A DNA stretch of 64,000 nucleotides from an uncultured Planctomycetales bacterium (GCA_964645795.1 CAZYCL010000003.1:101771-165770); one strand, 5' to 3'. Counted from the first letter of the stretch, positions 19,799 through 57,143 are shown. Made by a program: numbers and translations. The notes: generated from the sequence alone by a model not told the origin.

Positions 19799-20194
19799 CT
19801 AGAATTCGGGGTACTCCGAAGGCAGCTTCGGCTGCTCGACTTGCGGATCTTCGTTTATTCTGCTAAGACTGGGTTTGCCCACGGATTGTTTTAGCGGCGG
19901 TTTATCCCTTCTGTCAAACAAGCGCATAAGTATTTCCCTTAGCTGCGTGTCAGGGACTGCGACGCCAGAGTTTTCTGAGCGCTTAGATTTGGAATCCGGA
20001 AGCAGCTTCCTTGCGCCCTGAGACAGCTCTCTGTTTATTGACGCATTGCCGGAGTATACCGTTGAGCTCTTGTCTTTTTTGTCTTTCTTGTCTTTTTTGT
20101 CCTTGCCCGGCTTGCAATAACCGTCGCTAAAGCACAAAAACACCGATAGCAATAGTATTATAGAGATCCAGAGCGGCCGCCTTGATACCTCCAT
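19799..20194 (-). CDS. Small secreted/lipoprotein-like protein with a (KDK)n repeat, lysine-rich; hypothetical
   Basis: 131 aa. Signal peptide with a possible lipobox (LSVFLCFSDGYC), then KPGKDKKDKKDKKDK. A GGAGG RBS lies 6 nt upstream. It is the only gene downstream of the GEMM-like leader. Confidence 0.7.
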   Translation of the reverse strand: MEVSRRPLWISIILLLSVFLCFSDGYCKPGKDKKDKKDKKDKSSTVYSGNASINRELSQGARKLLPDSKSKRSENSGVAVPDTQLREILMRLFDRRDKPPLKQSVGKPSLSRINEDPQVEQPKLPSEYPEF

Positions 20195-20244: not shown

Positions 20245-20340
20245 GCTAGAGTTTTCGGTAGCCTGACTACCCGTGTCGCTGTCGGGCTCACGGCTTTGCG
20301 TCCTCTCCTTGCGAAGAGTTTGCCTTTATCGAACAATATT
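20245..20340 (-). promoter_or_regulatory. c-di-GMP-I (GEMM) riboswitch aptamer
   Basis: Minus-strand RNA: ...GGCAAAC-CUCUUC-GCAA-GGAGAG-GACGCAAAGCC-GUGAG-CCCG-ACAGCGACA-CGGG-UAGUCAGGCUACCGA... Compared with the Vibrio cholerae Vc2 aptamer (...GGCAAACC-AUUC-GAAA-GAGU-GGGACGCAAAGCC...UACCGA), GGCAAAC and GACGCAAAGCC are identical and there is a 6-bp P1b hairpin capped by a GNRA tetraloop (GCAA). A second hairpin and the 3' UACCGA follow. Confidence 0.8.
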
Positions 20341-31617: not shown

Positions 31618-32304
31618 CTATCCGTGATAGCCCAGGCCTTTTTCGCGGGCGAGCCTGTCACTGACATACTTTGCTAGCCTGTCCTGCTCTTCAGAGCTTA
31701 TGTCGATAAGCTTTATGCCGTAGTACCATTTATCCGCCTTCAAGAATTCGCTCTTCCAGACTATCCTGCCCATGTACTCGGTATTATTTACCTCGGGCAG
31801 CTTTATGGCGATCTTTGCCCCATCTTCATACTTGGTCCTGGAGATAAGCAGCAGGCCGCCGGCCCCCAGATTTTTGGTTACGCCTTCATCATAATCCTGG
31901 AAAATGTTGGGATACTCCTGGGTATAAGCTTTGATTACGTGCTCCATCCGGAAGAACCGTCTTCTGTCCTTGTGGGGCCTGAAGCTTCTGGGCCTGCTCA
32001 ACACCCACAGGTATACGGGCTGCTCAACGGTCTCTTTAAATTTGACCTCGGATTTAAAGTACTGGTCACCCCTAAGGACAAATACCTCGATCCTCTGGTC
32101 CGGGAGGGATTCCATGGATTCTACCTCATGAGGGCTTATGCCGCCTATATAGATATTCTCCTGGTCCCAGTCTTCGATGCGGCTGACAAGGGTCCGCTGA
32201 GAATCGCCTATACGCAGGAATATGCTTTGGTGAGGCGATATTTTATCGTCAAGCTTCTCGACTTTGCTTTCTGCTAACTTCTTAAAAAGATTTACAATTT
32301 CCAT
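31618..32304 (-). CDS. YcgR-like c-di-GMP-binding protein (PilZN + PilZ domains)
   Basis: 228 aa with PilZ signatures RRRFFR (RxxxR) and NLGAGGLLL (D/NxSxxG). Confidence 0.75.
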   Translation of the reverse strand: MEIVNLFKKLAESKVEKLDDKISPHQSIFLRIGDSQRTLVSRIEDWDQENIYIGGISPHEVESMESLPDQRIEVFVLRGDQYFKSEVKFKETVEQPVYLWVLSRPRSFRPHKDRRRFFRMEHVIKAYTQEYPNIFQDYDEGVTKNLGAGGLLLISRTKYEDGAKIAIKLPEVNNTEYMGRIVWKSEFLKADKWYYGIKLIDISSEEQDRLAKYVSDRLAREKGLGYHG

Positions 32305-32389: not shown

Positions 32390-33070
32390 TTAGTCGCTTT
32401 CCGCAGCGCCTTTGGCCAGCCTGTCCTTTACATATGAATCGAGCTTATGCAATGCTTCAGGGCTGATGTTCAGAAATTTCATGCCGTAATACCATTTATC
32501 ATATTTGGGGGAAGGGCTTTTCCAGAGGGTATGGCCTAAAAACTCGTATTTACATATATCCGGGAACTTAAGCACGATCTTTGTCCTTAGGTCAAAGCTG
32601 TTTCTGGATATGAGCATCGCTCCGCCCAGGCAGATATTCTTGACCATCGTCTCTTCGTAATCCTGGAAGATGTTCGGATATTCCTGTATAAAGGTTTTGG
32701 CTACATTCTCCAGGCGGTAGCACTGCCTCCTGTCCTGGTGCACAACGAACTTTTTAGGCATACTCAGCACCCACAGGTATATCGGCTGCTCGATCATTTT
32801 AATAAAGAACACTTCCGATCTATAATAGGAGCCGCCTATAAGGATGAAGAGCTCTATTTTCTGTCCGGGGTAGGGAACGGCAAAGTGGTTCTCATCGCTG
32901 CTTATGCCGGAGACGTGGATCCTGTCTTCGTACCAGTCTTCTATGCGGGAAACCAGGGTCTGAGGAGAGGCGCCGAAGCGTATAAACAAGCTTTGGCGCA
33001 GCTTCACCTTGTCCTGAAGCCTGAAAGAACTGTTTGCCGGCATTCTCTGAAAAAACCGCATAATATTCAT
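32390..33070 (-). CDS. YcgR-like PilZ-domain protein, tandem paralog of 31618-32304
   Basis: 226 aa, collinear with the neighbouring paralog. PilZ motifs RRQCYR and NICLGGAML. Confidence 0.72.
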   Translation of the reverse strand: MNIMRFFQRMPANSSFRLQDKVKLRQSLFIRFGASPQTLVSRIEDWYEDRIHVSGISSDENHFAVPYPGQKIELFILIGGSYYRSEVFFIKMIEQPIYLWVLSMPKKFVVHQDRRQCYRLENVAKTFIQEYPNIFQDYEETMVKNICLGGAMLISRNSFDLRTKIVLKFPDICKYEFLGHTLWKSPSPKYDKWYYGMKFLNISPEALHKLDSYVKDRLAKGAAESD

Positions 33071-37697: not shown

Positions 37698-38051
37698 ATG
37701 GAACAGCAATTACCTGAAGAACGGCGCAAGGCGGTAAGGATCAAGAAGCAGCTTTCGGTGCAGTACCAGGATCTGGACGACCCCCGGATCTGGGACAGGG
37801 CCGATATCAAGGATTTCAGCGAAACGGGGCTGGTTATGGTAGTAGAGAGGAGCTTTGATCCGGATACCTGCCTGCACTTCCGGATCAAGATCCCGCTTGA
37901 TCCTTTTCGCTGGCATGAGTTCCGCGGTAAGGTCGTGGCGAGCGAACACCGTAAGGTCAGGATCCGGATCACCGAGATCGGCGACGAGGCCTTAGGGATG
38001 GTCCGTCAATATATAGCCTGGCACTTGAGTCAGAAGAAACCCCGTGCTTGA
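37698..38051 (+). CDS. Single-domain PilZ c-di-GMP-binding protein
   Basis: 117 aa with RRKAVR (RxxxR) in the N-terminal 15 aa and DFSETGLVM (DxSxxG). Confidence 0.7.
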   Translation: MEQQLPEERRKAVRIKKQLSVQYQDLDDPRIWDRADIKDFSETGLVMVVERSFDPDTCLHFRIKIPLDPFRWHEFRGKVVASEHRKVRIRITEIGDEALGMVRQYIAWHLSQKKPRA

Positions 38052-38071
38052 GCGCGGTTCAATAAAAACAG

Positions 38072-38100
38072 TTGACAAGATGCTCCGGGGTTGGTAAAGT
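38072..38100 (+). promoter_or_regulatory. Candidate promoter for the cobalamin riboswitch/btu-cob operon (-35 TTGACA, 17 nt, -10 TAAAGT)
   Basis: TTGACA at 38072-38077, with a weak -10 at 38095-38100. Confidence 0.35.
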
Positions 38101-38114
38101 ATAAACAAATTTGA

Positions 38115-38285
38115 TTATACGGGTTAGGGAAATCAGTCGAAGTACAAGCTGATGCGGTCCCGCCGCTGTGATCCCGGCCTCCTTGAAAGGGAGGCAGCCT
38201 TTGGAGTTAGTAAAGCCACTGTCCGCCGCAAGCGGGTGGGAAGGCTAACCAATGGCCAAGGAAAGCCAGAAGACCTGCCTGTATA
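38115..38285 (+). promoter_or_regulatory. Cobalamin (AdoCbl-type) riboswitch aptamer
   Basis: Conserved blocks appear in the canonical order: GGGAA...CTG...CCCGCCGCTGTGA (cf. CCCGCAACTGTAA), then the GCCACTG core, then GGGAAGGC, then the B12 box AAGCCAGAAGACCTGCC. It is upstream of btuF. Confidence 0.8.
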
Positions 38286-38329
38286 AAGACGCAAAAGCCT
38301 CGAGGAAAGGGCCAAGTAAATATTTGGGT

Positions 38330-38376
38330 GCAGCCCGATTTCAGTACGAAAGTACGGATCGGGCATTTTTATTTTT
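38330..38376 (+). terminator. Riboswitch expression-platform intrinsic terminator
   Basis: GCCCGAT-TTCAGTACGAAAGTACGG-ATCGGGC followed by ATTTTTATTTTT. The btuF ATG at 38380 follows with only a weak SD. Confidence 0.65.
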
Positions 38377-38379
38377 GAG

Positions 38380-39261
38380 ATGTCAAGAGTTCGCAATATC
38401 CTTTTTTTCATTTTAGTCTTAACAACAACCGTAATCCGGCTATTTGTACTTTGTGATACAGGATCTTGTCATGAGGGGGAAAAAAGCTCGCCCAGATACA
38501 TTTCCCTGGCGCCTTCTACCACCGAAATCCTTTTCGCGCTGGGTCTGGACAAAGAGATAGTGGGGGTAAGCACTTTCTGCGATTACCCGCCGCAAGCAAG
38601 GCATAAGCGTAAAGTGGGCAGTTTCAGCAGCCCCAGCATCGAAACCATTCTTTACCTGAGGCCCGATTACATCTTCTGCACAGGGCTGGAACAGGCGCCG
38701 GCAATAGAAGTCCTAAGGCGCCTGGGTTTAGCGGTATTTGTTTGCGACCCTGCCGGCACAAAAGAGTTGTTTGACTCTATCGCCCAGATCGCAATGATAG
38801 TCGGCAGAGAAACAGAGGGCAAAGAGCTTATAAACAAGATGCGCTCTGAGATAATGACGGTCGCCCGGAAGTCGGAAAATATCCCCGATGAAACAAAATT
38901 GCGGGTTTTCATCGAGATCTGGCATGAGCCTCTGATGACTGCAGGAAAAGGGTCATTTGTGGATGAGCTTATCGGCCTGGCAGGCGGCATAAATATAGCC
39001 CATAATACTATCAGGCCTTACAGCAATTACAGCGCAGAGATGGTGATCAAATCCAACCCACAGGTGATCATCCTGACATACATGGATAAAGAATCGCCGT
39101 TGAAGCTTGTTGAAAACAGGTTCGGTTGGAAAGGTATCGAGGCAATACGGAAGAGGCGCGTATTTAACGATATAAGCTCAAGCCTGCTTTTGAGGCCCGG
39201 GCCAAGGGTTGGCGAAGGGCTCAAGGCCGTCTACGAGAAGCTATATGGAAAGACCGATTAA
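38380..39261 (+). CDS. btuF: Periplasmic cobalamin/corrinoid ABC transporter substrate-binding protein (BtuF-like, class III SBP)
   Basis: 293 aa with a signal/lipoprotein-like N-terminus and a PBP fold typical of BtuF/FhuD. Riboswitch-controlled and followed by FecCD permease and ATPase genes. Confidence 0.75.
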   Translation: MSRVRNILFFILVLTTTVIRLFVLCDTGSCHEGEKSSPRYISLAPSTTEILFALGLDKEIVGVSTFCDYPPQARHKRKVGSFSSPSIETILYLRPDYIFCTGLEQAPAIEVLRRLGLAVFVCDPAGTKELFDSIAQIAMIVGRETEGKELINKMRSEIMTVARKSENIPDETKLRVFIEIWHEPLMTAGKGSFVDELIGLAGGINIAHNTIRPYSNYSAEMVIKSNPQVIILTYMDKESPLKLVENRFGWKGIEAIRKRRVFNDISSSLLLRPGPRVGEGLKAVYEKLYGKTD

Positions 39262-40204
39262 ACGCAATCTGGTTGTCCTGTTTTCTTTATTCTTTTTGGC
39301 CGTGGTCCTTAGCATTACCAACGGCGCGGTCAATATTGCGTTTCCGGAGCTTTTGCGCCAGGACAACAGGCAGATCCTGAATTTAAGGCTTCTAAGGATA
39401 GCCGCGGCAGTGCTTGCGGGAAGCGGATTGGCCGTCTCGGGGATAGCCTTACAGGCCATTCTGCGCAATCCTCTTGCCGAGCCGTATCTTCTGGGGACTT
39501 CCAGCGGAGCGGGGCTGGCATCGGTCAGCGCCGCGATACTCGGGATATCGCGCGTATTCATGCCATTGGCAGCTTTCCTGGGGGCTCTGATCAGCATAAT
39601 CGTCGTCTACGGCCTTAGCCGCGAGCAAGGCAAGGTAACCGAAAAATCGCTTATCCTTTCCGGGGTGATAATTGCCGTTGCGCTTTCCTCGGTCATAGTG
39701 TTTTTGGTGTCGTTATTCGGCAACGAAGCCTTGCATGAGATGAACTGGTGGCTTTGGGGCAGTCTCCAGGTATACGATCTTAAGCTTTTATTTATTGTAA
39801 GTATCCCCGTGCTGGCAGGGATCGCATCTATATATTTATTCGCTCAGGATTTAAACGCTATAAGCCTGGGCGAAGAAGATGCGATACATCTGGGCATAAA
39901 CCCTCAGAAAACCAGAAAGCTTATAATACTGCTTACGGCCCTGATTACCGCCAGCATCGTCTGCGTGTGCGGGATAATCGGTTTTGTGGGGCTGATCGTG
40001 CCCCATATGATGCGTTTCGTGGTGGGGCCAAACCACAGAATACTCATACCTGCTGCAATTATCGCCTCAAGCCTGTTTATGATGCTTTGCGACTTATTGA
40101 GCCGGTCGCTATTCGGGCCCATAGAGATCCCTATCGGAGTGATCACCGCCATTATCGGGGCGCCGGTTTTTGTCTTGCTGCTCAAAAAAAGAAGGCGTAT
40201 CTGA
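39245..40204 (+). CDS. btuC: FecCD-family ABC permease (BtuC-like)
   Basis: Start at the internal Met (MERPIKRNLVVLF...) to limit overlap with btuF. 9-10 TM helices. Motif GIIGFVGLIVPHMMRF. Confidence 0.8.
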   Translation: MERPIKRNLVVLFSLFFLAVVLSITNGAVNIAFPELLRQDNRQILNLRLLRIAAAVLAGSGLAVSGIALQAILRNPLAEPYLLGTSSGAGLASVSAAILGISRVFMPLAAFLGALISIIVVYGLSREQGKVTEKSLILSGVIIAVALSSVIVFLVSLFGNEALHEMNWWLWGSLQVYDLKLLFIVSIPVLAGIASIYLFAQDLNAISLGEEDAIHLGINPQKTRKLIILLTALITASIVCVCGIIGFVGLIVPHMMRFVVGPNHRILIPAAIIASSLFMMLCDLLSRSLFGPIEIPIGVITAIIGAPVFVLLLKKRRRI

Positions 40205-40995
40205 TGCAAACTTTGCTTGAAATAAGGAGAATATGCGGAGGCTACCGCGACTTCAACGTAATAGAAGATGTAAGTCTGTGCGTTAATACGGGTGATATCC
40301 TGGGCATTATCGGCCCTAACGGTTCGGGCAAAACCACATTACTGCGGCTGGCAACGCGGGTATTAAGGCCGTCTTCGGGCAGCCTCTGTCTTTACGGTGA
40401 AGATATTTTTGGTATGAAGCCGAAAGAATTTGCTAAAAAGGTGGCTTTTGTCGGCCAGGATATCAATACCGGTTTTTCGTTTACCGCGCTGGAAGTGGCG
40501 CTCCTGGGAAGAATACCTCACCTGGGCAGGCTGCAGTTTGAAGGTAAAATTGACAGGCGTATCGCGGAAGAATCGCTCGAGCTTACGGATTCCCTCGGGC
40601 TTAGGAACAAATGCGTGGATGAGCTGAGCGCCGGCGAAAGGCAGCGCGTAATCATCGCCCGCGCGCTTGCACAAGAACCAGCGCTATTGCTTTTGGATGA
40701 ACCAACGTCGCATTTGGATATCGGCCATCAGATACAGACGCTCGACCTTCTTAAGCGCTTAAACCGGGCTAAAAATCTTACCATTGCCATGATCCTGCAC
40801 GACCTTAACCTTGCCAGCGCATATTGCAACCGGATCGCGCTCCTCGAAGGCGGCAGGATATTCAAAGAGGGGGATCCCGAAGATGTCCTTACCTATCAGA
40901 ATATTGAATCCGTCTATAAAACGGTTGTCCTGGTAACTAAAAACCAGGTAACCGGAAAGCCCAATGTGATGCTGGTGCCGGGGGAGGCGGCATGA
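40204..40995 (+). CDS. btuD: ABC transporter ATP-binding protein (BtuD/FepC-like)
   Basis: Start at the ATG at 40204, a TGATG overlap with btuC; the track ORF's upstream extension overlaps btuC. Walker A GPNGSGKTT, signature LSAGERQRV, Walker B LLLLDEPTSHLD. Confidence 0.85.
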   Translation: MQTLLEIRRICGGYRDFNVIEDVSLCVNTGDILGIIGPNGSGKTTLLRLATRVLRPSSGSLCLYGEDIFGMKPKEFAKKVAFVGQDINTGFSFTALEVALLGRIPHLGRLQFEGKIDRRIAEESLELTDSLGLRNKCVDELSAGERQRVIIARALAQEPALLLLDEPTSHLDIGHQIQTLDLLKRLNRAKNLTIAMILHDLNLASAYCNRIALLEGGRIFKEGDPEDVLTYQNIESVYKTVVLVTKNQVTGKPNVMLVPGEAA

Positions 40996-41588
40996 CTACG
41001 CGGATTTATCTTATCAGGCACGGACGGACCAGATGGAACAGGTTAAGGCGTTATTGCGGAAGGCTGGATGTACCTCTGAGCCGCGAAGGGGCGTCGCAGG
41101 CAAAAAGGCTTTATCGCTCTCTCAATAGCATCGTATTTGACAGGGTATTCTGCAGCCCCCAGAAACGGGCGCTGCAAACGGCGCGTATCCTATTTGGCAA
41201 ATCCGGTATAACCTGCCTTGACAAATTAAGGGAGATCGATTTTGGAGTTCTCGAAGGCATGCATTATAAGGCTATAATGAAAAAATACGGCAGGGTTTAT
41301 AAAAACTGGATAAGTGATCCTTACAGGCACCGTCTCCCCGGATCGGAACCGATTAACGCTTTCAAGAAAAGGGTGGTCTCGGCGATCAATGGCATCGCCA
41401 GCAAGAATCCGGGCAGAACCGTTGCGGTTATCTGCCACGGCGGGGTGATCGCCATGTTTGTGAGCAACCTGAAAAAAGCGGGTAATTTCTGGCCGTATGT
41501 GCCGAAATCGACAAGCGTTACTGTCGTTGAATACGGTAATGGCAAACCAAAAGTAAAAAAGTTCAACGATATAGATCACCTGGGTTAG
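40992..41588 (+). CDS. cobC: Alpha-ribazole-5'-phosphate phosphatase (CobC, histidine phosphatase family)
   Basis: 198 aa with the RHG motif (IYLIRHGRTRWN) and a second His (ICHGGVI). Confidence 0.75.
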   Translation: MTTRIYLIRHGRTRWNRLRRYCGRLDVPLSREGASQAKRLYRSLNSIVFDRVFCSPQKRALQTARILFGKSGITCLDKLREIDFGVLEGMHYKAIMKKYGRVYKNWISDPYRHRLPGSEPINAFKKRVVSAINGIASKNPGRTVAVICHGGVIAMFVSNLKKAGNFWPYVPKSTSVTVVEYGNGKPKVKKFNDIDHLG

Positions 41589-41625
41589 CCGGTTTTACCA
41601 TTAGCCGCAAAACTGAACAACTATT

Positions 41626-42141
41626 ATGGGTAGATTAATCTTAATTTTGGGGGGAGCGCGAAGCGGTAAAAGCACTTACGCGCTGGAGTTGGCCAAAAAA
41701 CACAAAAAGGTCGCCTTCATCGCTACATGCCAGGGGCTCGATGACGAGATGAAAGAGCGTATCCGGCTGCATCAGCAAGGCCGGCCGAAAGAATGGAAGA
41801 CGTACGAAGAGCCCAAGGACCTTCTTTCGTTGATAAGCAATATCGGCAATGAACACAACTGCATTCTTATAGACTGCCTGACCCTGCTTGTCTCTAATTT
41901 GATCCTGGACGGTTATCAGGAAAATGATATTATCCAAAAGATCAAAGCTATGATAGCGGCCTTAAAACATAGAGACATACCCGTGATCTTGGTTTCTAAC
42001 GAGACGGGATTAGGCATAGTCCCTGATACTAAGCTGGGAAGGGAGTTCAGGGATATCGCCGGCAAAGTAAACCAGGTAGCCGCCGCTGAAGCCGATGAGG
42101 TGTTCTTTATGTTCTGCGGCCTGGCAAGTAAGTTAAAGTAA
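41626..42141 (+). CDS. cobU: Adenosylcobinamide kinase / adenosylcobinamide-phosphate guanylyltransferase
   Basis: 171 aa with P-loop LILGGARSGKS and the CobU-family LIDCLT motif. Confidence 0.8.
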   Translation: MGRLILILGGARSGKSTYALELAKKHKKVAFIATCQGLDDEMKERIRLHQQGRPKEWKTYEEPKDLLSLISNIGNEHNCILIDCLTLLVSNLILDGYQENDIIQKIKAMIAALKHRDIPVILVSNETGLGIVPDTKLGREFRDIAGKVNQVAAAEADEVFFMFCGLASKLK

Positions 42142-42147
42142 TACGCT

Positions 42148-42184
42148 GGGGACGGTTCTGGGGACAGGTCCCAGAACCGTCCCC
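42148..42184. repeat. Perfect 15-bp inverted repeat hairpin (GGGGACGGTTCTGGG-7nt-CCCAGAACCGTCCCC) between cobU and cobT
   Basis: Exact reverse-complement arms at 42148-42162 and 42170-42184. No T-tract follows. Confidence 0.6.
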
Positions 42185-42200
42185 GCAATACGAGGGTCGG

Positions 42201-43262
42201 ATGGGAAGATTGGCATCTATAGTCAGCAATATCGCTTCATTAGACACTGAGGCTATGGACAGGGCTCAAGCCAGGCTTGACTCTTTGACCAAGCCTCTTG
42301 GGAGCCTGGGCAGACTTGAAAGCCTGGCTAAGCAGATCTGCGGGATAACCGCAAAAACAAACCCCTCGCTGACCAACAAGATCATATTTACCCTGGCCGC
42401 AGACCACGGGGTAACGCAGGAAGGCGTAAGCGCGTTTCCTAAGGAAGTGACCGCACAAATGGTCTATAATTTTATCAAAGGGGGAGCGGCAATTAACGTC
42501 CTGGCAAATCATATCAATGCCAAAGTCGTAGTCGTAGATATCGGCGTTTGCTGCGACCTGAAACCCGACCGCAACCTGGCAATAAAGAAGGTTGCCTGCG
42601 GAACCAAGAATATGGCTGACGGGCCCGCAATGTCCAGGGAACAGGCGCTGGAGGCCATAGATGCGGGTTTTGAAGTTTTTGACAGCGAATTCGATCGAGG
42701 CGTAGATATTATCGGTACAGGCGAGATGGGAATAGGCAACACTACCGCTGCAAGCTGCATAACAGCGGTATTTACTAAAAAAACCCCTCAAGAAGTCACT
42801 GGCAGAGGCGCGGGGCTTGATAATAAAGCACTGGAGCACAAAGTTGAAGTCGTGAAAAAAGCGCTCAGGCTCAATGACCCTGACCCCGCAGACCCTCTGG
42901 GCGTGCTATCCAAGGTCGGAGGGCTGGAGATCGCAGGCCTTGTCGGCATAATCCTGGCGGCAGCCGCCAAGAGGGTACCAGTCGTTATAGACGGTTTTAT
43001 TTCCGGCGCGGCAGCGCTAGTTGCCTGCCGGATGGCGCCGAAGGTAAAGGATTTCATGATCGCCGCGCATGTATCAGCCGAAGGCGGCCACAGGTACGCA
43101 CTCGATCATATGGGGCTGAAGCCGCTTTTAGACCTCGATATGAGGCTGGGTGAAGGGACGGGTGCGGCCCTGGCAATAGGATTGTGCGAGGCGGCGCTAA
43201 ATTTATTGACGCAAATGGCGACGTTTGAGAACGCCAAAGTTTCCAAAAGGAGGCCCGGATGA
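42201..43262 (+). CDS. cobT: Nicotinate-nucleotide--dimethylbenzimidazole phosphoribosyltransferase
   Basis: 353 aa, a CobT-family Rossmann-like protein with the conserved GEMGIGNTT motif. Confidence 0.85.
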   Translation: MGRLASIVSNIASLDTEAMDRAQARLDSLTKPLGSLGRLESLAKQICGITAKTNPSLTNKIIFTLAADHGVTQEGVSAFPKEVTAQMVYNFIKGGAAINVLANHINAKVVVVDIGVCCDLKPDRNLAIKKVACGTKNMADGPAMSREQALEAIDAGFEVFDSEFDRGVDIIGTGEMGIGNTTAASCITAVFTKKTPQEVTGRGAGLDNKALEHKVEVVKKALRLNDPDPADPLGVLSKVGGLEIAGLVGIILAAAAKRVPVVIDGFISGAAALVACRMAPKVKDFMIAAHVSAEGGHRYALDHMGLKPLLDLDMRLGEGTGAALAIGLCEAALNLLTQMATFENAKVSKRRPG

Positions 43263-44008
43263 AACCTTTTCTATTGGCGCTGCAGTTTTTGACTATCATC
43301 CCGGTACAGATAAACAAAGTCAAGACCAGGCACATTGCCTCTTCGGTGGCGTATTTCCCTCTGATCGGCATATTCCTGGGCTCATGTCTCATTATTATTA
43401 ACTTCATATTGCAGCGGAGCGGCTTCAACGCCTTGACGGTTGATACTTTGCTGGTAGTCGCGCTTATTGTCCTTACCGGCGGCCTGCATATGGACGGCCT
43501 TGCCGATACTTGTGACGCTTTAGGCAGCGGTAGCGGCAGGGAGAAAATGCTTGAGATCATGCGAGATTCGCGTATCGGGGCAATGGGGGTTTTAGGCATA
43601 ATATGCGTCATCGTATCCAAGATATCCCTGCTTAACAGCATGGATCAGTTTTTGAAACCTTATGCCCTGCTCTTAATGTGTGTTTTAAGCCGCTGGGGCA
43701 TGGTGCTGGAAATGCTGTCTTTTCGCTATGCCAGGCAAGAAGGCAAGGCAAAGGATTACATAGAAGGCGCGGACCTTAAATTTTTTGTTTTGGCAACGAC
43801 GATAACTTTCGTAACGGTCCTGGCTGCTGGAGGGGCCAGAAGCATAATCGCCATGGCAGTCGTCGCCTTGGCGGTTTTTCTTCTAGGGTTGTTCTTTTCA
43901 AAAAAGTTCGGCGGGATCACCGGAGATACGATCGGGGCAGGCAACGAAATTACGGAACTGGTCTCTCTGGTGGCTATTATTGGGGTGCACCAAGGGTGGC
44001 TGGCATGA
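43259..44008 (+). CDS. cobS: Cobalamin-5'-phosphate synthase (adenosylcobinamide-GDP ribazoletransferase)
   Basis: 249 aa polytopic membrane protein with the CobS signature (GGLHMDGLADTCDAL). Confidence 0.85.
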   Translation: MKPFLLALQFLTIIPVQINKVKTRHIASSVAYFPLIGIFLGSCLIIINFILQRSGFNALTVDTLLVVALIVLTGGLHMDGLADTCDALGSGSGREKMLEIMRDSRIGAMGVLGIICVIVSKISLLNSMDQFLKPYALLLMCVLSRWGMVLEMLSFRYARQEGKAKDYIEGADLKFFVLATTITFVTVLAAGGARSIIAMAVVALAVFLLGLFFSKKFGGITGDTIGAGNEITELVSLVAIIGVHQGWLA

Positions 44009-44697
44009 ATGAACAAGTTGCCCTGTCTTCCTGGAGCGGAGGCAAAGACAGCTGTTTGGCATACTTCAAGGCCATAAACAGCGGCGTCCAGGTAAAGGCC
44101 CTTCTTAATTTCATCGGCCGCGAATCGAAGCGAGGCTGTTTTCATGGCCTAGAGGGCAGGCTTCTAAAGTTCCAGGCCGATCTCATAGGGGTTCCTTTGG
44201 TTCAGAAAGAAGTAAGCCCTGATATGAAGATGTATGAAGGCGAGTTCAAGGCTGCGGTTGAGGAGCTCAAGGCCTCCCGGAAAATAAACTCCATGGTTTT
44301 CGGCGATATTTACCTGCTGGAGCACCAAAGCTGGGTTGAAAGGGTATGCTCGGAGCTTGGAATTAAAGCGGTCGAACCTCTCTGGAACAACGATCCGGAA
44401 AAGATTATCGAAGAGTTTTTGGATGCGGGATTTAGGTCCGTCGTGGTCAGTTGCAAGGCCGATGTCATGGGGCGCGAGTTTATCGGCCGCTTTATAGATA
44501 GGGAGATGGTTAAAGACCTCAAGAAACTCCAAATTTGCCCCTGTGGGGAGAAAGGAGAGTACCATACTTTAGTGGTTGATGGGCCGATATTCAAGAAGCG
44601 CATCGAGATCGCCGAATCCGAGGTGATCAAGAAGGAGAGCTTCTGGACGCACTGGTTTTTGGATATCAAGAGGTACGAAGCGGTAGAAAAGAGCTAA
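43996..44697 (+). CDS. PP-loop ATP pyrophosphatase-like protein of the MJ0570/Dph6 (DUF71) family
   Basis: 233 aa with an N-terminal SGGKDS PP-loop. It is the last gene of the riboswitch-controlled btu-cob operon, ending immediately before the second riboswitch. Confidence 0.6.
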   Translation: MAGMNEQVALSSWSGGKDSCLAYFKAINSGVQVKALLNFIGRESKRGCFHGLEGRLLKFQADLIGVPLVQKEVSPDMKMYEGEFKAAVEELKASRKINSMVFGDIYLLEHQSWVERVCSELGIKAVEPLWNNDPEKIIEEFLDAGFRSVVVSCKADVMGREFIGRFIDREMVKDLKKLQICPCGEKGEYHTLVVDGPIFKKRIEIAESEVIKKESFWTHWFLDIKRYEAVEKS

Positions 44698-44714
44698 AAT
44701 AATCGTTAACTATC

Positions 44715-44850
44715 CGTATGTGCGAAGGAACTCCCGGTGTGATCCCGGGGGCTGCCCCGCAACAGTAATTTAGTTCACAGCCCACTGTCAACTGTCAACT
44801 AATTAGCCTGGTCCATCGTACATAACGGAAAGTACCTTCGCGGGAAGGAA
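44715..44850 (+). promoter_or_regulatory. Second, compact cobalamin riboswitch-like element upstream of btuB
   Basis: It has GGTGtgATCC, GCTGCCCCGCAACAGTAA (consensus GCUGnCCCCGCAACUGUAA) and the AGCCCACTG core. A putative P1 pairs GCGAAGG (44730-44736) with CCTTCGC (44837-44843), with the GGAAAGGAG RBS immediately 3'. The 3' B12-box match (AGCCTGGTCC) is weaker. Confidence 0.55.
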
Positions 44851-44865
44851 AGGAGAATATTTATC

Positions 44866-46707
44866 ATGAACCGGCTTCTGTGTGTATTCATTTCGTTGTT
44901 ATTCATGGGCTGTAACAGCGTTTTTGCGGGTGAGGTCGAGCTTGAGAAGATCGTTGTGACCGCCTCACGGATGCTTCAGCAGGACAGTTCTGTTAACCAA
45001 AAAGTAGACGTTGTAGAAGATAGCCTCATCGAAAGCCGTCAAGCCAATAATCTTGCTAAGGCAATCGAAAGCCTGACCCCGGTCCAGGTGATCAATTACG
45101 GAGGCCTAGGGGCAAGCAAGAGCGTAAGAATGCGGGGGGCTAGCCCTTCGCAGGTCCTGGTCATGGTTGACGGCCGCCCTATCAATAATGCGCGCGACGG
45201 CCAGGCAGAGCTCAATAGCATACAACTGGACAATATCGGGCGAATTGAACTTTTGCGCGGCGCGGCCTCCAGCCTATACGGCTCATCAGCTATGGGTGGC
45301 GTGATAAACCTAATCAGCCGCCCTGTGCCTAAAAAAGGATTCCACAGCGAAATCCATAGCGGCTTCGGGACATTCAGGAGGTATAGCGAACGCCTGCTTC
45401 ATGAAGGCAGGCCAATCCCCCAAATAGGCTACAGCATAAATTATTCTTACAACCATTCGCAGGGCCACAGGAGTAATAGCGATTTTGAAGCAAATAACTT
45501 TAACGCGAAGATAAGCTGCGAACCAACCGATCAAAACAGATTCGAATTTTTGGGAGGAGCCTACAAGGATGAAGCCGGCACTCCCGGACCGGCCAGCTTC
45601 CCCGATGAAGATGACCGCCAGAAATCCAGGAAAAATTACTACGATATAATCTGGGAGTTTGATACCGACGAAAAAACGCAAGTTAAGCTGCGCACTTACC
45701 AGAACTACGACAGGCTAGAGTTCATTGAAAATACTCCGGGCGACTTATGGAGCACGCCTTTTGCCAAAGATATTCATGCTACCAGGCAAAGGGGGCTTGA
45801 TTTTACCGCCAGCCGCGCGTTCTGCGAAAATTTTAGCGCTGTGGGAGGGTTTAATTACGTTGACAACAAAAATGACAGCACGACCTCAGCAAAGCACAAG
45901 TATATCGTAAAAAGCTGGTATTTTACCGGTAAACTCAAGCCTTTGCCGGGCCTTGATCTTGATTTCGGCTCCAGGGTAGACGATTATTCTAACTTCGGCA
46001 GCCAGGTAAGCCCGAATATAGGCATAGGTTGTGATCTGAGAAAGGGTTTGAAGTTTTATGCTTTGACCAGCCGCTCCTTCAGGGCGCCCACGTTTAACGA
46101 CCTTTACTGGCCTGATGAGGGTTGGGCAAAGGGCAACCCTTCCCTGAAGCCTGAAAAAGGCATAAACGGCGAGGCAGGATTCAGGCTCGATTTAGATAAA
46201 CACATCCGGGCCAATCTTTGCTACTTCCGCAGCCGTTACAGCCAGCTTATAAACTGGGTGCCGGATGCATCCGGCTGGGTGTGGTCTCCGACGAACATAG
46301 GCAAGGCGCTTATTGACGGTATCGAATCCGACTTGTCCGTAATGCTGACCGAGGATGTCGGGCTCAGTTTTGGCTATACCTATGTCCGAGCAAAAGACAG
46401 CGATACCCGCAAGTTCCTTATTTATCAACCTAAGCATAAGGCAAAGTTCGGCCTTAAGCATAGCGATATTTACGGTTTTTCTGTCGAATTGAAAGGCGAA
46501 TTCACAGGCAAAGCCTTTCATGATTCCCAGAATGCCACATTCATTGAACGCTACTATCTTCTTGGCTTTAACATCGACAGAAAGATAAACCAACATGCGC
46601 ATTTCTACCTGTCTGTGGATAACCTGCTTAACAAGAAGTATGCAATCGTGCAGGACTATCCCATGCCAGGATTTAGCGTAAACGCGTGCCTTAAGCTTGA
46701 ATTTTAA
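44866..46707 (+). CDS. btuB: TonB-dependent outer-membrane receptor (BtuB-like cobalamin/corrinoid receptor)
   Basis: 613 aa with a signal peptide, TonB box EKIVVTASR, plug domain, 22-strand barrel region, and a C-terminal ...LKLEF ending in Phe. Preceded by a cobalamin riboswitch-like leader. Confidence 0.85.
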   Translation: MNRLLCVFISLLFMGCNSVFAGEVELEKIVVTASRMLQQDSSVNQKVDVVEDSLIESRQANNLAKAIESLTPVQVINYGGLGASKSVRMRGASPSQVLVMVDGRPINNARDGQAELNSIQLDNIGRIELLRGAASSLYGSSAMGGVINLISRPVPKKGFHSEIHSGFGTFRRYSERLLHEGRPIPQIGYSINYSYNHSQGHRSNSDFEANNFNAKISCEPTDQNRFEFLGGAYKDEAGTPGPASFPDEDDRQKSRKNYYDIIWEFDTDEKTQVKLRTYQNYDRLEFIENTPGDLWSTPFAKDIHATRQRGLDFTASRAFCENFSAVGGFNYVDNKNDSTTSAKHKYIVKSWYFTGKLKPLPGLDLDFGSRVDDYSNFGSQVSPNIGIGCDLRKGLKFYALTSRSFRAPTFNDLYWPDEGWAKGNPSLKPEKGINGEAGFRLDLDKHIRANLCYFRSRYSQLINWVPDASGWVWSPTNIGKALIDGIESDLSVMLTEDVGLSFGYTYVRAKDSDTRKFLIYQPKHKAKFGLKHSDIYGFSVELKGEFTGKAFHDSQNATFIERYYLLGFNIDRKINQHAHFYLSVDNLLNKKYAIVQDYPMPGFSVNACLKLEF

Positions 46708-46778
46708 CATGGCTTAAGCCTGAATTTTATCCTGCGGGCCCGGCCCGGACAATGAGCACAAACGTGCGGGTAAAATAA

Positions 46779-47504
46779 TTGTGGCAAAAGCAGCCGGTTT
46801 ATGTTAACTTAAACTGCATGGAATTCACCAGAAGCTTTCAGACTGCTCTTGCTATCTCCATTATAGCCCACACGACGGCGATCCTGCCATTGCCGGGCCT
46901 AAACCGCCTTTCTGAAAACAAAAAGGAAAAAACGCTCGCCGTAAAATATATAAGGCTGCCTAAAGAAAAACGTGAACAGATCCGGCTGGAGGCTAAAACC
47001 CGGGAACGGCTCCTGCCTATCCCCGAGAAGGCTGCCGTCCGGCCAAAACTTCCTGCTCCGGCGCTTACCGACAAAGAGGAGCTGTTTAAGAAGGCCGGTC
47101 CGGGCCAATCCAGGACAGCTCAGCTTAACAAGCCTGCCGTAGCCAATAGCGACGTCATCTCCATAAGGAAAAAGATATCCCTGCCTCCGGTAGACCTTGA
47201 TAAGATCGATAACCCTTCCTATATCGGCTACTACCAGCTGATCCGCGAGAAGATCAAGCGCGCCGCTTACCAGAATTATTCTCGCAGCGACTGCGGTGAC
47301 GTATATATCTCTTTCGTGATCTCTTCCGACGGCCATTTGAAAAACCTGATCCTCAGCGGCGAAAAATCCTCCTCTAACAATTATTTAAAACAAATCGCGG
47401 TTCAAAGCGTCAAAGACGCTTCGCCTTTCCCGAATTTCCCTAAAGAGCTGGATTACCCCCAGCTTTCCTTTAACGTCATCATTTCTTTTGAGATAGACGG
47501 ATAA
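46779..47504 (+). CDS. tonB: Energy transducer TonB
   Basis: 241 aa with an N-terminal TM anchor, a Pro/Lys-rich spacer (PIPEKAAVRPKLPAP) and a TonB_C domain. Possible alternative start at the Met at 46818. Confidence 0.75.
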   Translation: MWQKQPVYVNLNCMEFTRSFQTALAISIIAHTTAILPLPGLNRLSENKKEKTLAVKYIRLPKEKREQIRLEAKTRERLLPIPEKAAVRPKLPAPALTDKEELFKKAGPGQSRTAQLNKPAVANSDVISIRKKISLPPVDLDKIDNPSYIGYYQLIREKIKRAAYQNYSRSDCGDVYISFVISSDGHLKNLILSGEKSSSNNYLKQIAVQSVKDASPFPNFPKELDYPQLSFNVIISFEIDG

Positions 47505-47515
47505 GCTTAGCGAAT

Positions 47516-48208
47516 ATGATCGATGTCAGCGTAATTCTGCCCTGCCTTAATGAAGAGAGGACCGTAGGCGTTTGCATCGACAAGATCCAGCAGGCCTTCC
47601 GGGACAGCCGCATAACCGGCGAGGTGATAGTCGTAGATAATAATTCTTTTGACGGGTCTGCACAGATAGCCCTCCAAAAAGGGGTGAAGGTGCTTCATGA
47701 AGATAAACAAGGCTACGGTAACGCGTACTTAAAGGGCCTGTCGCAAGCGCAAGGGAGAACCGTTATTTTTGGAGATATCGACAACACCTATGATTTCCGT
47801 GAAATTCCGCGTCTTTTGGATGCGATGAAAAAGAACAGCTGCGGCGCGGTAAACGGAAGCCGGTTCATGGGAAGGATAGAGCCGGGGTCTATGCCCTGGC
47901 TGCATCAATATATAGGGAATCCGTTTTTCACGGGATTATTCAATATTTTATTCGGTGCCGGGTTATCCGACCTGCTAAGCGGGTTTAAGGCTGTCAGCAG
48001 AGAGCGCCTGGATACCATCCACCTCAAAGAAACGGGAATGGAATTTATCGCTGAATTGGCGATAAAGCTGATAAAATCCGGCTGCCGGATAGAAGAAGTG
48101 CCCATAACCTATTGCCCCAGGAATAAAGATTCAAAGTCGAAGTTGAATACCTTTAGAGACGGCTGGAGGTATCTTAAGTTCATATGGACGGCCCGCTGGT
48201 CAGCATAA
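47516..48208 (+). CDS. Family 2 glycosyltransferase, soluble DPM1/GtrB-like polyprenol-phosphate sugar synthase
   Basis: 230 aa with GT-A DxD motifs (VSVILPCLNEE...VVDNNSFDGS...FGDIDN). Confidence 0.75.
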   Translation: MIDVSVILPCLNEERTVGVCIDKIQQAFRDSRITGEVIVVDNNSFDGSAQIALQKGVKVLHEDKQGYGNAYLKGLSQAQGRTVIFGDIDNTYDFREIPRLLDAMKKNSCGAVNGSRFMGRIEPGSMPWLHQYIGNPFFTGLFNILFGAGLSDLLSGFKAVSRERLDTIHLKETGMEFIAELAIKLIKSGCRIEEVPITYCPRNKDSKSKLNTFRDGWRYLKFIWTARWSA

Positions 48209-49164
48209 TCATACCGGCACGCAATGAGGCGGCCAACATAGAAAGATGCCTTGGCGCCCTTAGGCGGCAGACTTACCCAAAGATAGAGATTGTCGTAATT
48301 GATAACTGCAGCACGGACAACACGGCCCTTTTGGCCCAAGGGCTGGCCCATAAGGTCGTCGATGAACGGCGCAAGGGGATCGTTCATGCCAAAAACGCCG
48401 GCATAAAGGCTTCTTCAGGAGATCTGGTGGCCACAATCGACGCCGATTGCCTGGCCCGGGAAGATTGGATCAAAGAGCTGCTGCCATGTTTTGAAGATGC
48501 CGGTGTTGCTGGCGCCGGCGGACCCAATATTGCCCATGAAAATTCCGGGGCTATCCAGGGCTACATCGATGCTTTAATGCTTTTGCTATGCAAATGGATA
48601 GGCTCAAGATATGTAACGCAGGACACCCTGCGCAGGGACGTTACTCATATACCCGGCTGCAACGCTATATACAGAAGGACAGTATTGGATAAACTTGGCG
48701 GTTTTGACCCCAGGCTCCTTACCGTTGAAGACGAAGAGCTTGACTACCGCATCCTTGCGGCTGGCCACCGGATCATCTACGTTCCTTCTGCCGTGGTCTT
48801 CCACCGGCGCAGGGGCGACTGTCTAAGTTTTGCCCGCCAGATTTACAGGTATGCTATCGGCAGGATGCAGTTTATCAGGCTCCACCGGCTCTACCTTAAG
48901 CAGTTCCCCAGAATCCTGCCCTCTATTTTACTGATGTCAGCCGCCCTGCTTGTTATCGCAGGTTTTTTCGTCCCGGGGCTTTCAAGGCCGCTTGAGTTTT
49001 TAGCGTTTTCTTGCACGGCCTCACTTGCGGCGGCGTCTTTATATTTATGCTTCACAAGCCGAAAGGCTAACCCATTTATTTTTATGCTTTTGTTTGCGGT
49101 TGCTTTTTTCGCCTGGGGATCGGGCATGATCAGGGGATTGGCGTATCCGTACGAGGAATCTTAG
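48184..49164 (+). CDS. Family 2 glycosyltransferase with C-terminal TM helices (GtrB-like)
   Basis: 326 aa with GT-A motifs (VSIIIPARNEA...VIDNCSTDNT...TIDADC) and two or three C-terminal TM segments. Confidence 0.75.
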   Translation: MDGPLVSIIIPARNEAANIERCLGALRRQTYPKIEIVVIDNCSTDNTALLAQGLAHKVVDERRKGIVHAKNAGIKASSGDLVATIDADCLAREDWIKELLPCFEDAGVAGAGGPNIAHENSGAIQGYIDALMLLLCKWIGSRYVTQDTLRRDVTHIPGCNAIYRRTVLDKLGGFDPRLLTVEDEELDYRILAAGHRIIYVPSAVVFHRRRGDCLSFARQIYRYAIGRMQFIRLHRLYLKQFPRILPSILLMSAALLVIAGFFVPGLSRPLEFLAFSCTASLAAASLYLCFTSRKANPFIFMLLFAVAFFAWGSGMIRGLAYPYEES

Positions 49165-49165
49165 G

Positions 49166-50296
49166 ATGAGGTTCATAAACCAATTTGATACTATATTGCG
49201 CTACATCGCCGGTGTGCCTAAAGCCGGCTTGCCTCAACAGGTCTATTGGGTAATAAATGAAGAGTGCAATCTCAAATGCCGGTTCTGCAATTTTTGGAAA
49301 GGTATTTACCGCGAGGATGGCCGCAGGCCTCTTTCAACGGCCAACATAAAATCGATAATTGATAAAGCTTCGCGAGCCGGCATACCCTACCTGCTTTTCA
49401 CCGGAGGCGAGCCTTTCCTGAGGCCCGATCTGCCTGAAATACTGGAATATGCCGCAAAAAGGATGCCTTGCGTGCGGGTCCAGACTAACGGGACCCTGCT
49501 GACAGACGCGAAACTCCAAGCCATCGTAAATAGAAGATCCCTGGATGAGCTATGGATTTCCGTCGACGGTATCGGGTCTACGCACGATAGGTTCCGCGGA
49601 TGCGAGGGCATCTTCGAAAAAGTCATTGGCGCCCTGAAATCGATCGACCTTTTGAAAAAGAAGCATTCTGCCAGGCTGCCGTATATAGTAGTGCATACCG
49701 TGGTCAACAAAGAATGCATGGAAGAACTGCCGCAAATACTCAAAATCTGCGATGATTACAATGTCAATGAATGGTTCCTCAGCTATTTGACCGATGTCAG
49801 TGAATCGGCGGTCGCTGCTACAAACGGGATTTTAAAACGAGACTGCGTTTATTCCGGGCAGATGCAGCAGGGAGGGGACCAGGCTACCGGCGATCTGCGG
49901 ATTTCCGATGATATGCTCAAATCGATAAGAGAAGCCAGAAAAAAAGGCCTGGTCGTCTACATTGACCCGTTCCTGCTGGACGGATACGGCCGGCGCCCCA
50001 GAGAGAAATGCCTCCTGCTATGGTCGAGCATGATGGTTTCTCCTTACGGCGAGCTTCTGGTCTGCCCGATGCTTGACAAATGCCGCATGGGGAATCTCCT
50101 GGAAAACGAAATACCGGTAATCTGGAACAGCAAGGAATTCATCGAAATAAGGAAAAAGGTCATTTCCAGGGACGTGCCTCTATGCGAAGAATGCTGCGTG
50201 CAGCGCAGGACCATATGGTCTCAGTTTAAGGATCCGGCTAATTTCAGCCGTATTTTAATCCCAAGAGGCGTGCGCCAACGCCTTTACCGAAGATAA
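49166..50296 (+). CDS. Radical SAM enzyme with a SPASM/twitch auxiliary Fe-S domain
   Basis: 376 aa with CNLKCRFCNFW (CxxxCxxC) and a C-terminal Cys-rich SPASM-like region (CLLLWS...LLVCPMLDKCRMGNL...CEECCV). Confidence 0.8.
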   Translation: MRFINQFDTILRYIAGVPKAGLPQQVYWVINEECNLKCRFCNFWKGIYREDGRRPLSTANIKSIIDKASRAGIPYLLFTGGEPFLRPDLPEILEYAAKRMPCVRVQTNGTLLTDAKLQAIVNRRSLDELWISVDGIGSTHDRFRGCEGIFEKVIGALKSIDLLKKKHSARLPYIVVHTVVNKECMEELPQILKICDDYNVNEWFLSYLTDVSESAVAATNGILKRDCVYSGQMQQGGDQATGDLRISDDMLKSIREARKKGLVVYIDPFLLDGYGRRPREKCLLLWSSMMVSPYGELLVCPMLDKCRMGNLLENEIPVIWNSKEFIEIRKKVISRDVPLCEECCVQRRTIWSQFKDPANFSRILIPRGVRQRLYRR

Positions 50297-50316
50297 CCGG
50301 GCCATTTGATAGAGAA

Positions 50317-55705: not shown

Positions 55706-55709
55706 GCAT

Positions 55710-57140: not shown

Positions 57141-57143
57141 CCG

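Follow-up and report, generated by a model that had tools for sequence, protein, structure and literature searches.

The stretch of DNA considered in this study, 64,000 nucleotides (nt) from an uncultured Planctomycetales bacterium (GCA_964645795.1, CAZYCL010000003.1:101771-165770; this whole stretch will be called the window), carries at 38072-47504 a locus for the uptake and salvage of corrinoids that belongs to an Omnitrophota bacterium. Two cobalamin riboswitches in series, each of them turning expression off, very probably control the locus. The first is a long-form aptamer, followed by a terminator, before the gene btuF. The second is a short-form aptamer before a gene encoding a BtuB-like outer-membrane receptor. 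Coordinates are collected in Table 1.

When BtuF was compared with contigs taken from one genome per species, its relatives proved to be metagenome-assembled genomes of Candidatus Omnitrophota, 55-64% identical (67% over one truncated match), two of which carry the Planctomycetales label. Matches farther off come from Nitrospirales, Syntrophales and others. The exact CobT sequence turned up solely on a metagenome contig of 1.7 kb. The relatives used throughout are 15 Omnitrophota loci fetched for the purpose, which with the window make 16 leaders; individual loci and contigs are cited by handles of the form L004.

A Long-Form Riboswitch and Terminator before btuF

Both strands of the whole window were scanned with Rfam (cmscan) at gathering thresholds, giving two matches in total, one to RF00174 and one, described further on, to the c-di-GMP-I-GGC family. 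The RF00174 match runs the full length of the model (positions 1-189) and scores 62.9 bits against a gathering threshold of 31.5 (E-value 3.5e-13), far beyond chance. The first-pass annotation had called a canonical cobalamin riboswitch here on the strength of conserved blocks, and all five are present in the order it gave, with the core block, in RNA form CCCGCCGCUGU, lying between GGGAA and GCCACUG. Each of the 15 Omnitrophota loci has a match to the same family directly 5' of btuF, with scores of 63-98 bits. A promoter-like site just upstream implies a transcription start near 38107, and a transcript begun there would have a leader that folds into the long-form aptamer.

The long hairpin and U-tract reported before btuF are real as well, and the gap from the last U to the btuF ATG (at 38380) was measured as 3 nt, with no Shine-Dalgarno sequence. 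The stem consists of 13 pairs (9 and 4 around a 2-nt bulge) with a GAAA loop and a predicted energy of -16.8 kcal/mol. A simple terminator scan did not list this hairpin (38333-38364). An equivalent hairpin and U-tract occur in 16 of 16 leaders, with compensatory changes, which in the lower stem affect 4 of 8 pairs.

Of the leaders, the 12 with the greatest similarity were aligned over the part that begins with the B12 box and ends at the start codon. Invariant blocks in the alignment are CCUCG-N-GGA, GGG, GGGUG (nearly so) and CCCG, and RNAalifold predicts from it, besides the terminator, a four-pair hairpin GCCU[CGNGGAWN]GGGC, here called P13, with its loop L13. P13 is 97.9% paired, includes one compensatory pair, and has a predicted energy of -3.5 kcal/mol when folded alone. 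Pairing in P13 and the terminator taken together is 93%, their covariation score is 0.354 as compared to 0.166 in shuffled alignments (0 of 500 shuffles as high), and pairing drops to 24-57% in controls in which the arms were slid.

The motif CGaGGA in L13 (38301-38306) is complementary to L5 of the aptamer through five pairs, formed by C38301, G38302, G38304, G38305 and A38306, with A38303 bulged. Across the relatives CGNGGA is invariant, the bulged N alone varying, and the consensus loop of RF01482, UCGAGGcA, has the same motif. L5 is identical to the published L5 consensus, UCCCG (PMC10327014). Another candidate for a kissing loop, the GUAC repeats found in L4 of the aptamer and at the top of the terminator, was rejected because the sequence of L4 changes freely from relative to relative, whereas L5 UCCCG and L13 CGNGGA stay the same and agree with kissing loops already published.

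The design resembles the repressing riboswitch of Priestia megaterium metE described by the Taga laboratory (PMC10327014), which likewise has a long-form aptamer with L5 UCCCG, an L5-L13 kissing loop on a weak P13, and a P13 3' side complementary to the terminator's 5' side. In metE the kissing loop stabilises P13, as shown by mutation, and the mutationally tested model requires P13 to be less stable than the antiterminator and the antiterminator less stable than the terminator (PMC10327014). Predicted energies put the elements of the window in the same order: -3.5 kcal/mol for P13, -8.6 for the antiterminator span, and -16.8 for the terminator. Compared with metE, the putative kissing loop of the window has one bulged base (CGaGGA), as does env8, instead of five contiguous pairs; P13 has only 4 pairs; a nearly invariant GGGUG stands just 5' of the terminator; and the regulated genes are those of import and salvage rather than metE.

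By analogy with metE, L5 UCCCG of a corrinoid-bound aptamer would pair with L13 CGaGGA and hold the weak P13 shut. The GGGC of P13 would then be unavailable, the terminator would form, and transcription would stop just before btuF. With no ligand, the 3' half of P13 would pair with the 5' arm of the terminator (GGAAAGGGCC with AGCCCGAUUU) and the polymerase would read from btuF through the last of the eight genes downstream, DUF71-B12. The antiterminator so proposed shares GGGC with P13 and GCCC with the terminator. When 12 leaders were cut off ahead of the 3' arm, it was the minimum-free-energy partner in 6, and it is 69.5% paired in register as compared to 45-50% when slid by one column.

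Several observations speak against parts of this account. I call the antiterminator putative, and consider it the weakest link of the model, because its covariation is not above that of shuffles, 181 of 500 of which reach the observed pairing. In 6 of the 12 truncated leaders the 5' arm of the terminator prefers the adjacent GGGUG (38326-38330; alignment columns 71-75 in relatives), which lies directly 5' of the terminator and can form with its GCCC a 4-pair mini-hairpin of -4.9 kcal/mol; a search for a partner of GGGUG turned up no convincing conserved one. Finally, since L5 and L13 of the first riboswitch are invariant, their complementarity comes without covariation, and the kissing loop is suggested by that complementarity and by analogy. 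On balance the first riboswitch is most likely a repressing switch that acts by terminating transcription.

It is highly improbable that the sign of control is the reverse, with corrinoid binding activating expression as in the cobT riboswitch of Alkalihalobacillus halodurans. That riboswitch does precede a cobT gene and likewise uses an L5-L13 interaction and P13 (PMC10327014), but riboswitches of the activating type have bases that belong to both P13 and the terminator, whereas here P13 (38297-38312) and the terminator hairpin (38333-38364) are disjoint. A P13 whose 3' half can pair with the terminator's 5' arm is the repressing layout, and genes for import and salvage are usually repressed by the end product.

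A different matter is whether the first switch works mainly or also on translation, the terminator hairpin blocking initiation from within the landing zone of the ribosome. In about 12 of 16 leaders, most of which have no Shine-Dalgarno sequence here, the distance from U-tract to start codon is 0-13 nt (for example L010 449-452, L014 9949-9952 and L015 6411-6414), and the receptor gene of the same genome has a strong one (GGAG). The terminator hairpin may, then, also affect translation of btuF. Yet a hairpin with an 11-nt U-rich tract behind it is what textbooks show as an intrinsic terminator, and the design needs nothing besides termination to account for it; the start codon is not directly paired, and in L006 and L016 the start of the gene lies over 60 nt farther downstream. 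A dual-acting switch is for these reasons unlikely, and I retain termination as the mode of action of the first riboswitch.

A Short-Form Riboswitch before the Receptor Gene

The first-pass annotation had described an operon of eight genes ending at DUF71. The locus extends beyond that gene: a second aptamer starts 16 nt past the DUF71 stop codon, and it is followed by the receptor gene and by a gene for a TonB-like protein. The 168-nt spacer between DUF71 and the ATG of the receptor gene (44866) holds the aptamer and its P13/L13 hairpin. A permissive Rfam scan of 44500-45000 (501 nt) aligned it to the full RF01482 model with an E-value of 4.3e-5.

Seventeen sequences of the second aptamer were aligned, and a home-made covariance model, R1, was built from them. 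Over helices P1, P4, P5, P6 and P13, 94.3% of the cells of the alignment are paired. Compensatory changes occur in 16 of 24 pairs, a result that 0 of 500 shuffles reach, and the slid controls are 32-56% paired. In P6 the window has A-U where the others have G-C. The loops L5 and L13 also change together from locus to locus (CCCACG with CGUuGGG, CCCUG with CAuGGG, UCGCG with CGCGA), and the predicted energy of cognate L5-L13 duplexes is -5.16 kcal/mol as compared to -4.47 for non-cognate ones, modest support for the interaction (permutation fraction 0.049).

The second aptamer is found at the junction of DUF71 and the receptor gene in every relative whose sequence reaches it. R1 finds it with the same synteny in 9 genome loci (91-127 bits) and 5 metagenome contigs (102-130 bits), including two of the former, L008 and L014, and one of the latter, L087, that were left out of the training set. 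A pattern scan of metagenomes gave many chance matches, and only those confirmed by the covariance model were kept. A search of the window with the same model found no further copies. In the copy of L014 (17611-17817), the variable P6 hairpin is enlarged by about 95 inserted nt, in which GTAG/CTAC repeats abound, and the copy still scores 96 bits. Weaker relatives occur in high-G+C contigs, and only some of these are caught at Rfam gathering thresholds: L141 by RF01482 (52.4 bits) and others by RF00174 (32-34 bits). As judged by eye, the same type of aptamer is followed in L141, L069 and L112 by a terminator-like hairpin and a U-run; in L141 this hairpin precedes the receptor gene, which fits a control of read-through from upstream.

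Counting against the identification is the score, which in the window lies below gathering for every one of the three families of the Rfam cobalamin clan (36.3 bits for RF01482, where 50 is required) and in none of the copies at the junction in relatives reaches it. Might the second aptamer, then, be a decayed remnant without function, or a chance resemblance? This is scarcely credible given the covariation: a remnant would not be expected to stand at the same junction in 14 other loci with compensatory changes in two thirds of its pairs and with kissing-loop partners that change together, and close homologues such as L141 do attain the RF01482 gathering threshold. Judged from its conservation and covariation, the second aptamer is a real short-form cobalamin riboswitch, one that I take to be a clan-level relative that probably works like RF01482 rather than a scored member of that family.

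Known short-form riboswitches, RF01482 (AdoCbl) and the hydroxocobalamin riboswitch env8 (PMC10327014), have in common with it the absence of a long P6 and the same junction of P1, P4, P5 and P6, and the consensus of RF01482 has its L13 motif CGNGG. As in the translational switch of Escherichia coli btuB (PMC10327014), P13 lies beside the ribosome-binding site of a gene for an outer-membrane B12 receptor. Unlike these, the second riboswitch of the window has a conserved AGUAC linker before P13 and is located inside a string of genes, close behind a stop codon, rather than in a 5' leader.

The closing stem had also been considered as GCGAAGG/CCUUCGC, but the Rfam alignment and covariation give CCGUAUGUGCG with CGUACAUAACGG instead. 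The discarded pairing has a predicted energy of -13.4 kcal/mol and is by eye only partly conserved in relatives; I do not claim it as a ligand-free alternative.

For the second riboswitch, the most likely target is translation of the receptor gene. Transcripts that continue past DUF71 would reach the second aptamer, where a ligand-dependent L5-L13 kissing loop would close the P13 that abuts the Shine-Dalgarno sequence of the receptor gene, and the closed form would most likely lower translation. In most loci, however, the Shine-Dalgarno sequence lies beside P13 and not inside it, which counts against this account. A hairpin in the window that pairs the Shine-Dalgarno sequence with codons 4-5 of the receptor gene is by eye not conserved in relatives and was not used.

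One Transcript or Two

Neither a promoter-like nor a terminator-like site was found on the + strand at the junction of DUF71 and the receptor gene by scans for the sigma-70 consensus and for simple terminators. Because of this and of the 16-nt gap, I favour read-through from the first promoter, which would place ten genes or more on one transcript, with a riboswitch in its interior. The arrangement of second aptamer and receptor gene after DUF71 is conserved in relatives.

There is another way to read the junction, as the meeting of two independent units: the first riboswitch would govern the eight genes, and the receptor and TonB-like genes would be transcribed from a promoter hidden in the 3' end of DUF71, under the second riboswitch only. 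Riboswitches are usually found in 5' leaders, and the same short aptamer stands just 5' of btuF-like, cobU-cobT and cobC-like sequences in other contigs. Moreover, L017 and L018, both from Nitrospirales, carry a second full RF00174 riboswitch between btuD and the gene for the TonB-dependent receptor, the other lying before btuFCD (1-134 and 3072-3322 in L017; 2002-2172 and 5096-5313 in L018), so that a riboswitch plus a btuB-like gene appears to act as a module. A promoter within the DUF71 coding region, beyond the reach of a consensus scan, may exist, and this tells against a single transcript. Opposed to two units are the mere 16 nt between the DUF71 stop codon and P1 of the second aptamer, the conservation of this tight junction in all relatives, and the lack of a promoter-like site on the + strand in 44400-44714 and of a terminator past DUF71, the promoter scan being of the sigma-70 consensus only and hence weak evidence of absence. 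I consider two separate units rather unlikely and keep to read-through across the junction.

Whichever way the receptor gene is transcribed, a riboswitch directly before it is a recurring design across phyla and not a peculiarity of this locus, since riboswitch matches lie between btuD and the receptor gene in L017, in L018 and, as a weak match to R1, in the Syntrophaceae contig L022.

No terminator was found 3' of the TonB-like gene either. The TonB-like gene itself follows the receptor gene in L004, L009, L012, L014, L087 and L141. Past it come co-directional genes for glycosyltransferases, radical SAM proteins and a TPR protein, separated by tiny gaps. These appear to be outside the conserved B12 unit, because a homologue of the first of them lies upstream of the riboswitch in several relatives.

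Genes of the Locus and What They Imply for Salvage

Proteins were identified with Pfam and with NCBIfam, applying the equivalog cutoffs of the latter. The scan of open reading frames (ORFs) in the window took in every listed ORF of at least 110 amino acids, except those that fell within a longer annotated ORF, and in addition two ORFs below that length. Downstream of the first riboswitch, both databases bear out the eight genes btuF, btuC, btuD, cobC, cobU, cobT, cobS and DUF71 in the order given by the first-pass annotation, and as it held, none of the eight has a corrin-ring, CbiB or CobD function. The genes are closely packed: the ATG of btuC (39246) overlaps the end of btuF, that of btuD overlaps the stop codon of btuC (TGATG), and the probable ATG of DUF71 (44005) overlaps the stop codon of cobS. 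The order btuFCD-cobC-cobU-cobT-cobS-DUF71 is kept wherever the contigs of relatives reach far enough. It may be held against the functional assignments that BtuF, BtuC, BtuD, CobC, BtuB and BtuR, though best matches, fall below their NCBIfam equivalog cutoffs; the corrinoid specificity of the BtuFCD-type importer is supported by the riboswitch context.

The genes of this first unit would provide import of corrinoids across the inner membrane and the steps that lead from cobinamide to a complete cobamide. That the operon encodes the complete pathway of nucleotide-loop assembly, as had been proposed, is upheld insofar as CobU, CobT and CobS score above their cutoffs and CobC is the best match. 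Full salvage calls in addition for an adenosyltransferase, which is outside the operon: a BtuR/CobA gene is located upstream of the B12 locus at a distance of 20 kb, between genes for a protein-isoaspartate methyltransferase and a hybrid histidine kinase, and the Rfam scan of the window reported no riboswitch near it. From gene content, import together with CobU, CobT, CobS, CobC and this adenosyltransferase would suffice to convert cobinamide to a complete cobamide.

No corrin-ring enzyme, CbiB, CobD decarboxylase, CbiZ, BluB or Bza protein was found among the scanned ORFs of the 64-kb window. A class I/II aminotransferase (5033-6202) has its best matches among aspartate aminotransferases. 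The gene content of the window fits a salvager. The further claim that the organism is a salvager rather than a de novo producer goes beyond the evidence, because 64 kb is not a genome, because cobQ occurs in the operon of relatives, and because cobalamin biosynthesis has been reported by Seymour et al. as present, if not universal, in Omnitrophota (PMC10066038).

The cobQ gene comes to light through an extra 1.5 kb found between cobS and DUF71 in L004, L008, L009 and L014, and probably in L087 (1019-2586) as well. In L004, the one insert that was checked, it (10599-12176) encodes CobQ, a cobyric acid synthase (NF001989, 629 bits where the cutoff is 273). The gene is one of late ring amidation. 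DUF71 proteins of the relatives with the insert are more divergent, 44-49% identical to that of the window.

The DUF71 protein of the window has the PP-loop SGGKDS (SWSGGKDS) and the motif GEKGEYH, which matches the signature ENGE[F/Y]H of the DUF71-B12 subgroup except that its middle residue is K, not N. The form E-x-G-E-[F/Y]-H is found in 13 of 13 DUF71 sequences checked, the window and 12 relatives. The signature separates B12-linked DUF71 proteins from diphthine-ammonia ligases, its His replacing a Glu of Dph6 (PMC3541065). The DUF71-B12 clusters described by de Crecy-Lagard et al. in 2012 (PMC3541065) resemble the locus in the PP-loop, in this motif and in the adjoining genes for a btuFCD-type transporter. 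They differ from it in that here no cbiB is adjacent and that cobQ lies directly 5' of DUF71 in relatives (checked in L004; by insert in L008, L009 and L014). A literature search on DUF71-B12 turned up no paper that reports a biochemical function. As a lead from gene order, its constant presence in the operon, in several relatives directly behind cobQ, would be in keeping with an ATP-dependent function on the side-chain amides of corrinoids, a function different from the CbiZ-like hydrolysis proposed in 2012.

Besides salvage, remodelling of corrinoids had been ascribed to the organism. Remodelling needs an activity of the CbiZ or CbiR type. For the former, the remodelling reading would draw on the hypothesis of 2012 that DUF71-B12 replaces CbiZ (PMC3541065), by a route that would need cbiB, not seen in the window. 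CbiR, which allows remodelling independent of CbiB, belongs to Pfam family PF01261 (PMC7733943), and the only PF01261 protein of the window is encoded at 57241-58299, in a cluster of radical SAM and glycosyltransferase genes that lies 10 kb downstream and looks unrelated. The CbiR locus of Akkermansia muciniphila (PMC7733943) likewise combines salvage with genes of cobamide biosynthesis, in an organism without most ring-synthesis genes; in contrast to it, the operon considered here has no CbiR-type gene, and the PF01261 protein is likened to CbiR by family only.

The organism has uses for the cofactor, since two genes for HpnJ-like B12-binding radical SAM proteins (50317-51735 and 55710-57140) lie just downstream of the locus. 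They belong to a cluster on the + strand (47516-59107), with gaps of a few nt, that also encodes three family-2 glycosyltransferases, a radical SAM/SPASM protein, the PF01261 TIM-barrel protein, a TPR protein of 948 amino acids and a Memo-like protein. The B12-dependent enzymes of the cluster are plausible consumers of the imported cofactor.

Table 1. Features of the corrinoid uptake and salvage locus and the associated adenosyltransferase gene, in coordinates of the window.
Feature	Coordinates	Strand	Details
BtuR/CobA corrinoid adenosyltransferase	17281-17832	+	Pfam CobA_CobO_BtuR 1.4e-55; NCBIfam cobA models best, slightly below cutoff
Sigma-70-like promoter: TTGACA, 17 nt, extended -10 TGgTAAAGT	38072-38100	+	10/12 matches, consensus only
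Aptamer 1, long form with P6 extension	38104-38296	+	Closing stem 38117-38124 / 38277-38284
GGGAA block	38127-38131		Aptamer 1
Loop L5 UCCCG, aptamer half of the putative kissing loop	38158-38162	+	Invariant in relatives
CCCGCCGCTGTGA block	38159-38171		Aptamer 1
GCCACTG block	38216-38222		Aptamer 1
GGGAAGGC block	38239-38246		Aptamer 1
AAGCCAGAAGACCTGCC block	38263-38279		Aptamer 1
B12 box AGCCAGAAGACCUGCC	38264-38279	+	Nearly invariant in 12-sequence alignment
P13 hairpin GCCU/GGGC, loop L13 CGaGGAAA	38297-38312	+	RNAalifold
Putative antiterminator	38304-38341	+	GGAAAGGGCC (38304-38313) / AGCCCGAUUU (38332-38341)
Intrinsic terminator	38333-38376	+	Hairpin 38333-38364, then A, then UUUUUAUUUUU (38366-38376)
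btuF-like corrinoid-binding protein, signal peptide	38380-39261	+	Pfam Peripla_BP_2 8e-32; NCBIfam best BtuF, below cutoff
btuC-like permease	39246-40204	+	Pfam FecCD 3.6e-85; NCBIfam best BtuC, below cutoff
btuD-like ABC ATPase	40204-40995	+	Pfam ABC_tran; NCBIfam best corrinoid ABC transporter ATPase, below cutoff
cobC-like alpha-ribazole phosphatase	40992-41588	+	Pfam His_Phos_1 2.8e-53; TIGR03162 145.7 bits, cutoff 162.9
cobU, adenosylcobinamide kinase / guanylyltransferase	41626-42141	+	Pfam CobU 5.7e-60; NF004469 200.8, cutoff 161
cobT, lower-ligand phosphoribosyltransferase	42201-43262	+	Pfam DBI_PRT 1.5e-140; TIGR03160 460.9, cutoff 319
cobS, cobamide 5'-phosphate synthase	43259-44008	+	Pfam CobS 8.7e-56; TIGR00317 164.9, cutoff 110
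DUF71-B12 subgroup PP-loop ATPase	43996-44697	+	Pfam Diphthami_syn_2 4.6e-59
Aptamer 2, short form without long P6 extension	44714-44828	+	RF01482 (AdoCbl) 36.3 bits, full model aligned
Aptamer 2 P1	44714-16 / 44826-28 and 44718-24 / 44817-23		CCGUAUGUGCG with CGUACAUAACGG; Rfam alignment and covariation
Aptamer 2 P4	44733-37 / 44745-49
Aptamer 2 P5	44753-54 / 44760-61		L5 CCCCG 44755-59
Aptamer 2 P6	44763-65 / 44808-10
Aptamer 2 P13/L13 CCUUC-GCGG-GAAGG	44835-44848	+	Then purine run, Shine-Dalgarno GGAG 44852-44855
BtuB-like TonB-dependent outer-membrane receptor	44866-46707	+	Pfam Plug and TonB_dep_Rec_b-barrel; NCBIfam best TonB-dependent vitamin B12 receptor, 214 bits, below cutoff
TonB-like protein, probable ATG near 46818	46779-47504	+	Pfam TonB_2 C-terminal domain 1.6e-4, at threshold

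Other Features of the Window

The second riboswitch reported at Rfam gathering thresholds, the c-di-GMP-I-GGC aptamer (20253-20333, - strand; RF03167, 68.7 bits against a gathering threshold of 59), is 58 nt upstream of an ORF of 131 amino acids (19799-20194, - strand) that has no Pfam match. Genes for PilZ-domain proteins are found in the same part of the window at 31618-32304 and 32390-33070 on the - strand and at 37698-38051 on the + strand.

Significance

A cobalamin riboswitch and terminator before an operon for uptake and salvage, and the association of DUF71-B12 with such genes, had already been described, and the locus leaves the current understanding of riboswitches and of B12 salvage unchanged. 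What is added is the assignment to a phylum, an account of mechanism in agreement with a model validated not long ago, a short-form riboswitch that scores below threshold, two extra genes for uptake, the location of the adenosyltransferase and a caution on the inferred lifestyle. The conserved leader is a clean natural example of the P13/antiterminator/terminator design worked out in Firmicutes and could serve to test how general that design is. For the annotation of genomes, it follows from the scores of the second aptamer that scans at gathering thresholds undercount short-form cobalamin riboswitches in Omnitrophota and that reconstructions of regulons based on Rfam thresholds miss the control of btuB-like receptors.

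A more speculative idea, and a quite doubtful one, is that Omnitrophota wire two structurally different classes of cobalamin riboswitch in series on a single transcript, the long form gating transcription of all the import and salvage genes and the short form the receptor, with corrinoid preferences that could differ. Were it true, one class might prefer complete adenosylated cobamides, for example, and the other methyl or hydroxo forms or incomplete corrinoids, and uptake across the outer membrane and salvage in the cytoplasm would answer to different members of the corrinoid pool.

Omnitrophota are uncultivated and often ultra-small. At least this lineage of the phylum invests in the import and completion of corrinoids and probably regulates both tightly, and this bears on its dependence on neighbouring microbes.

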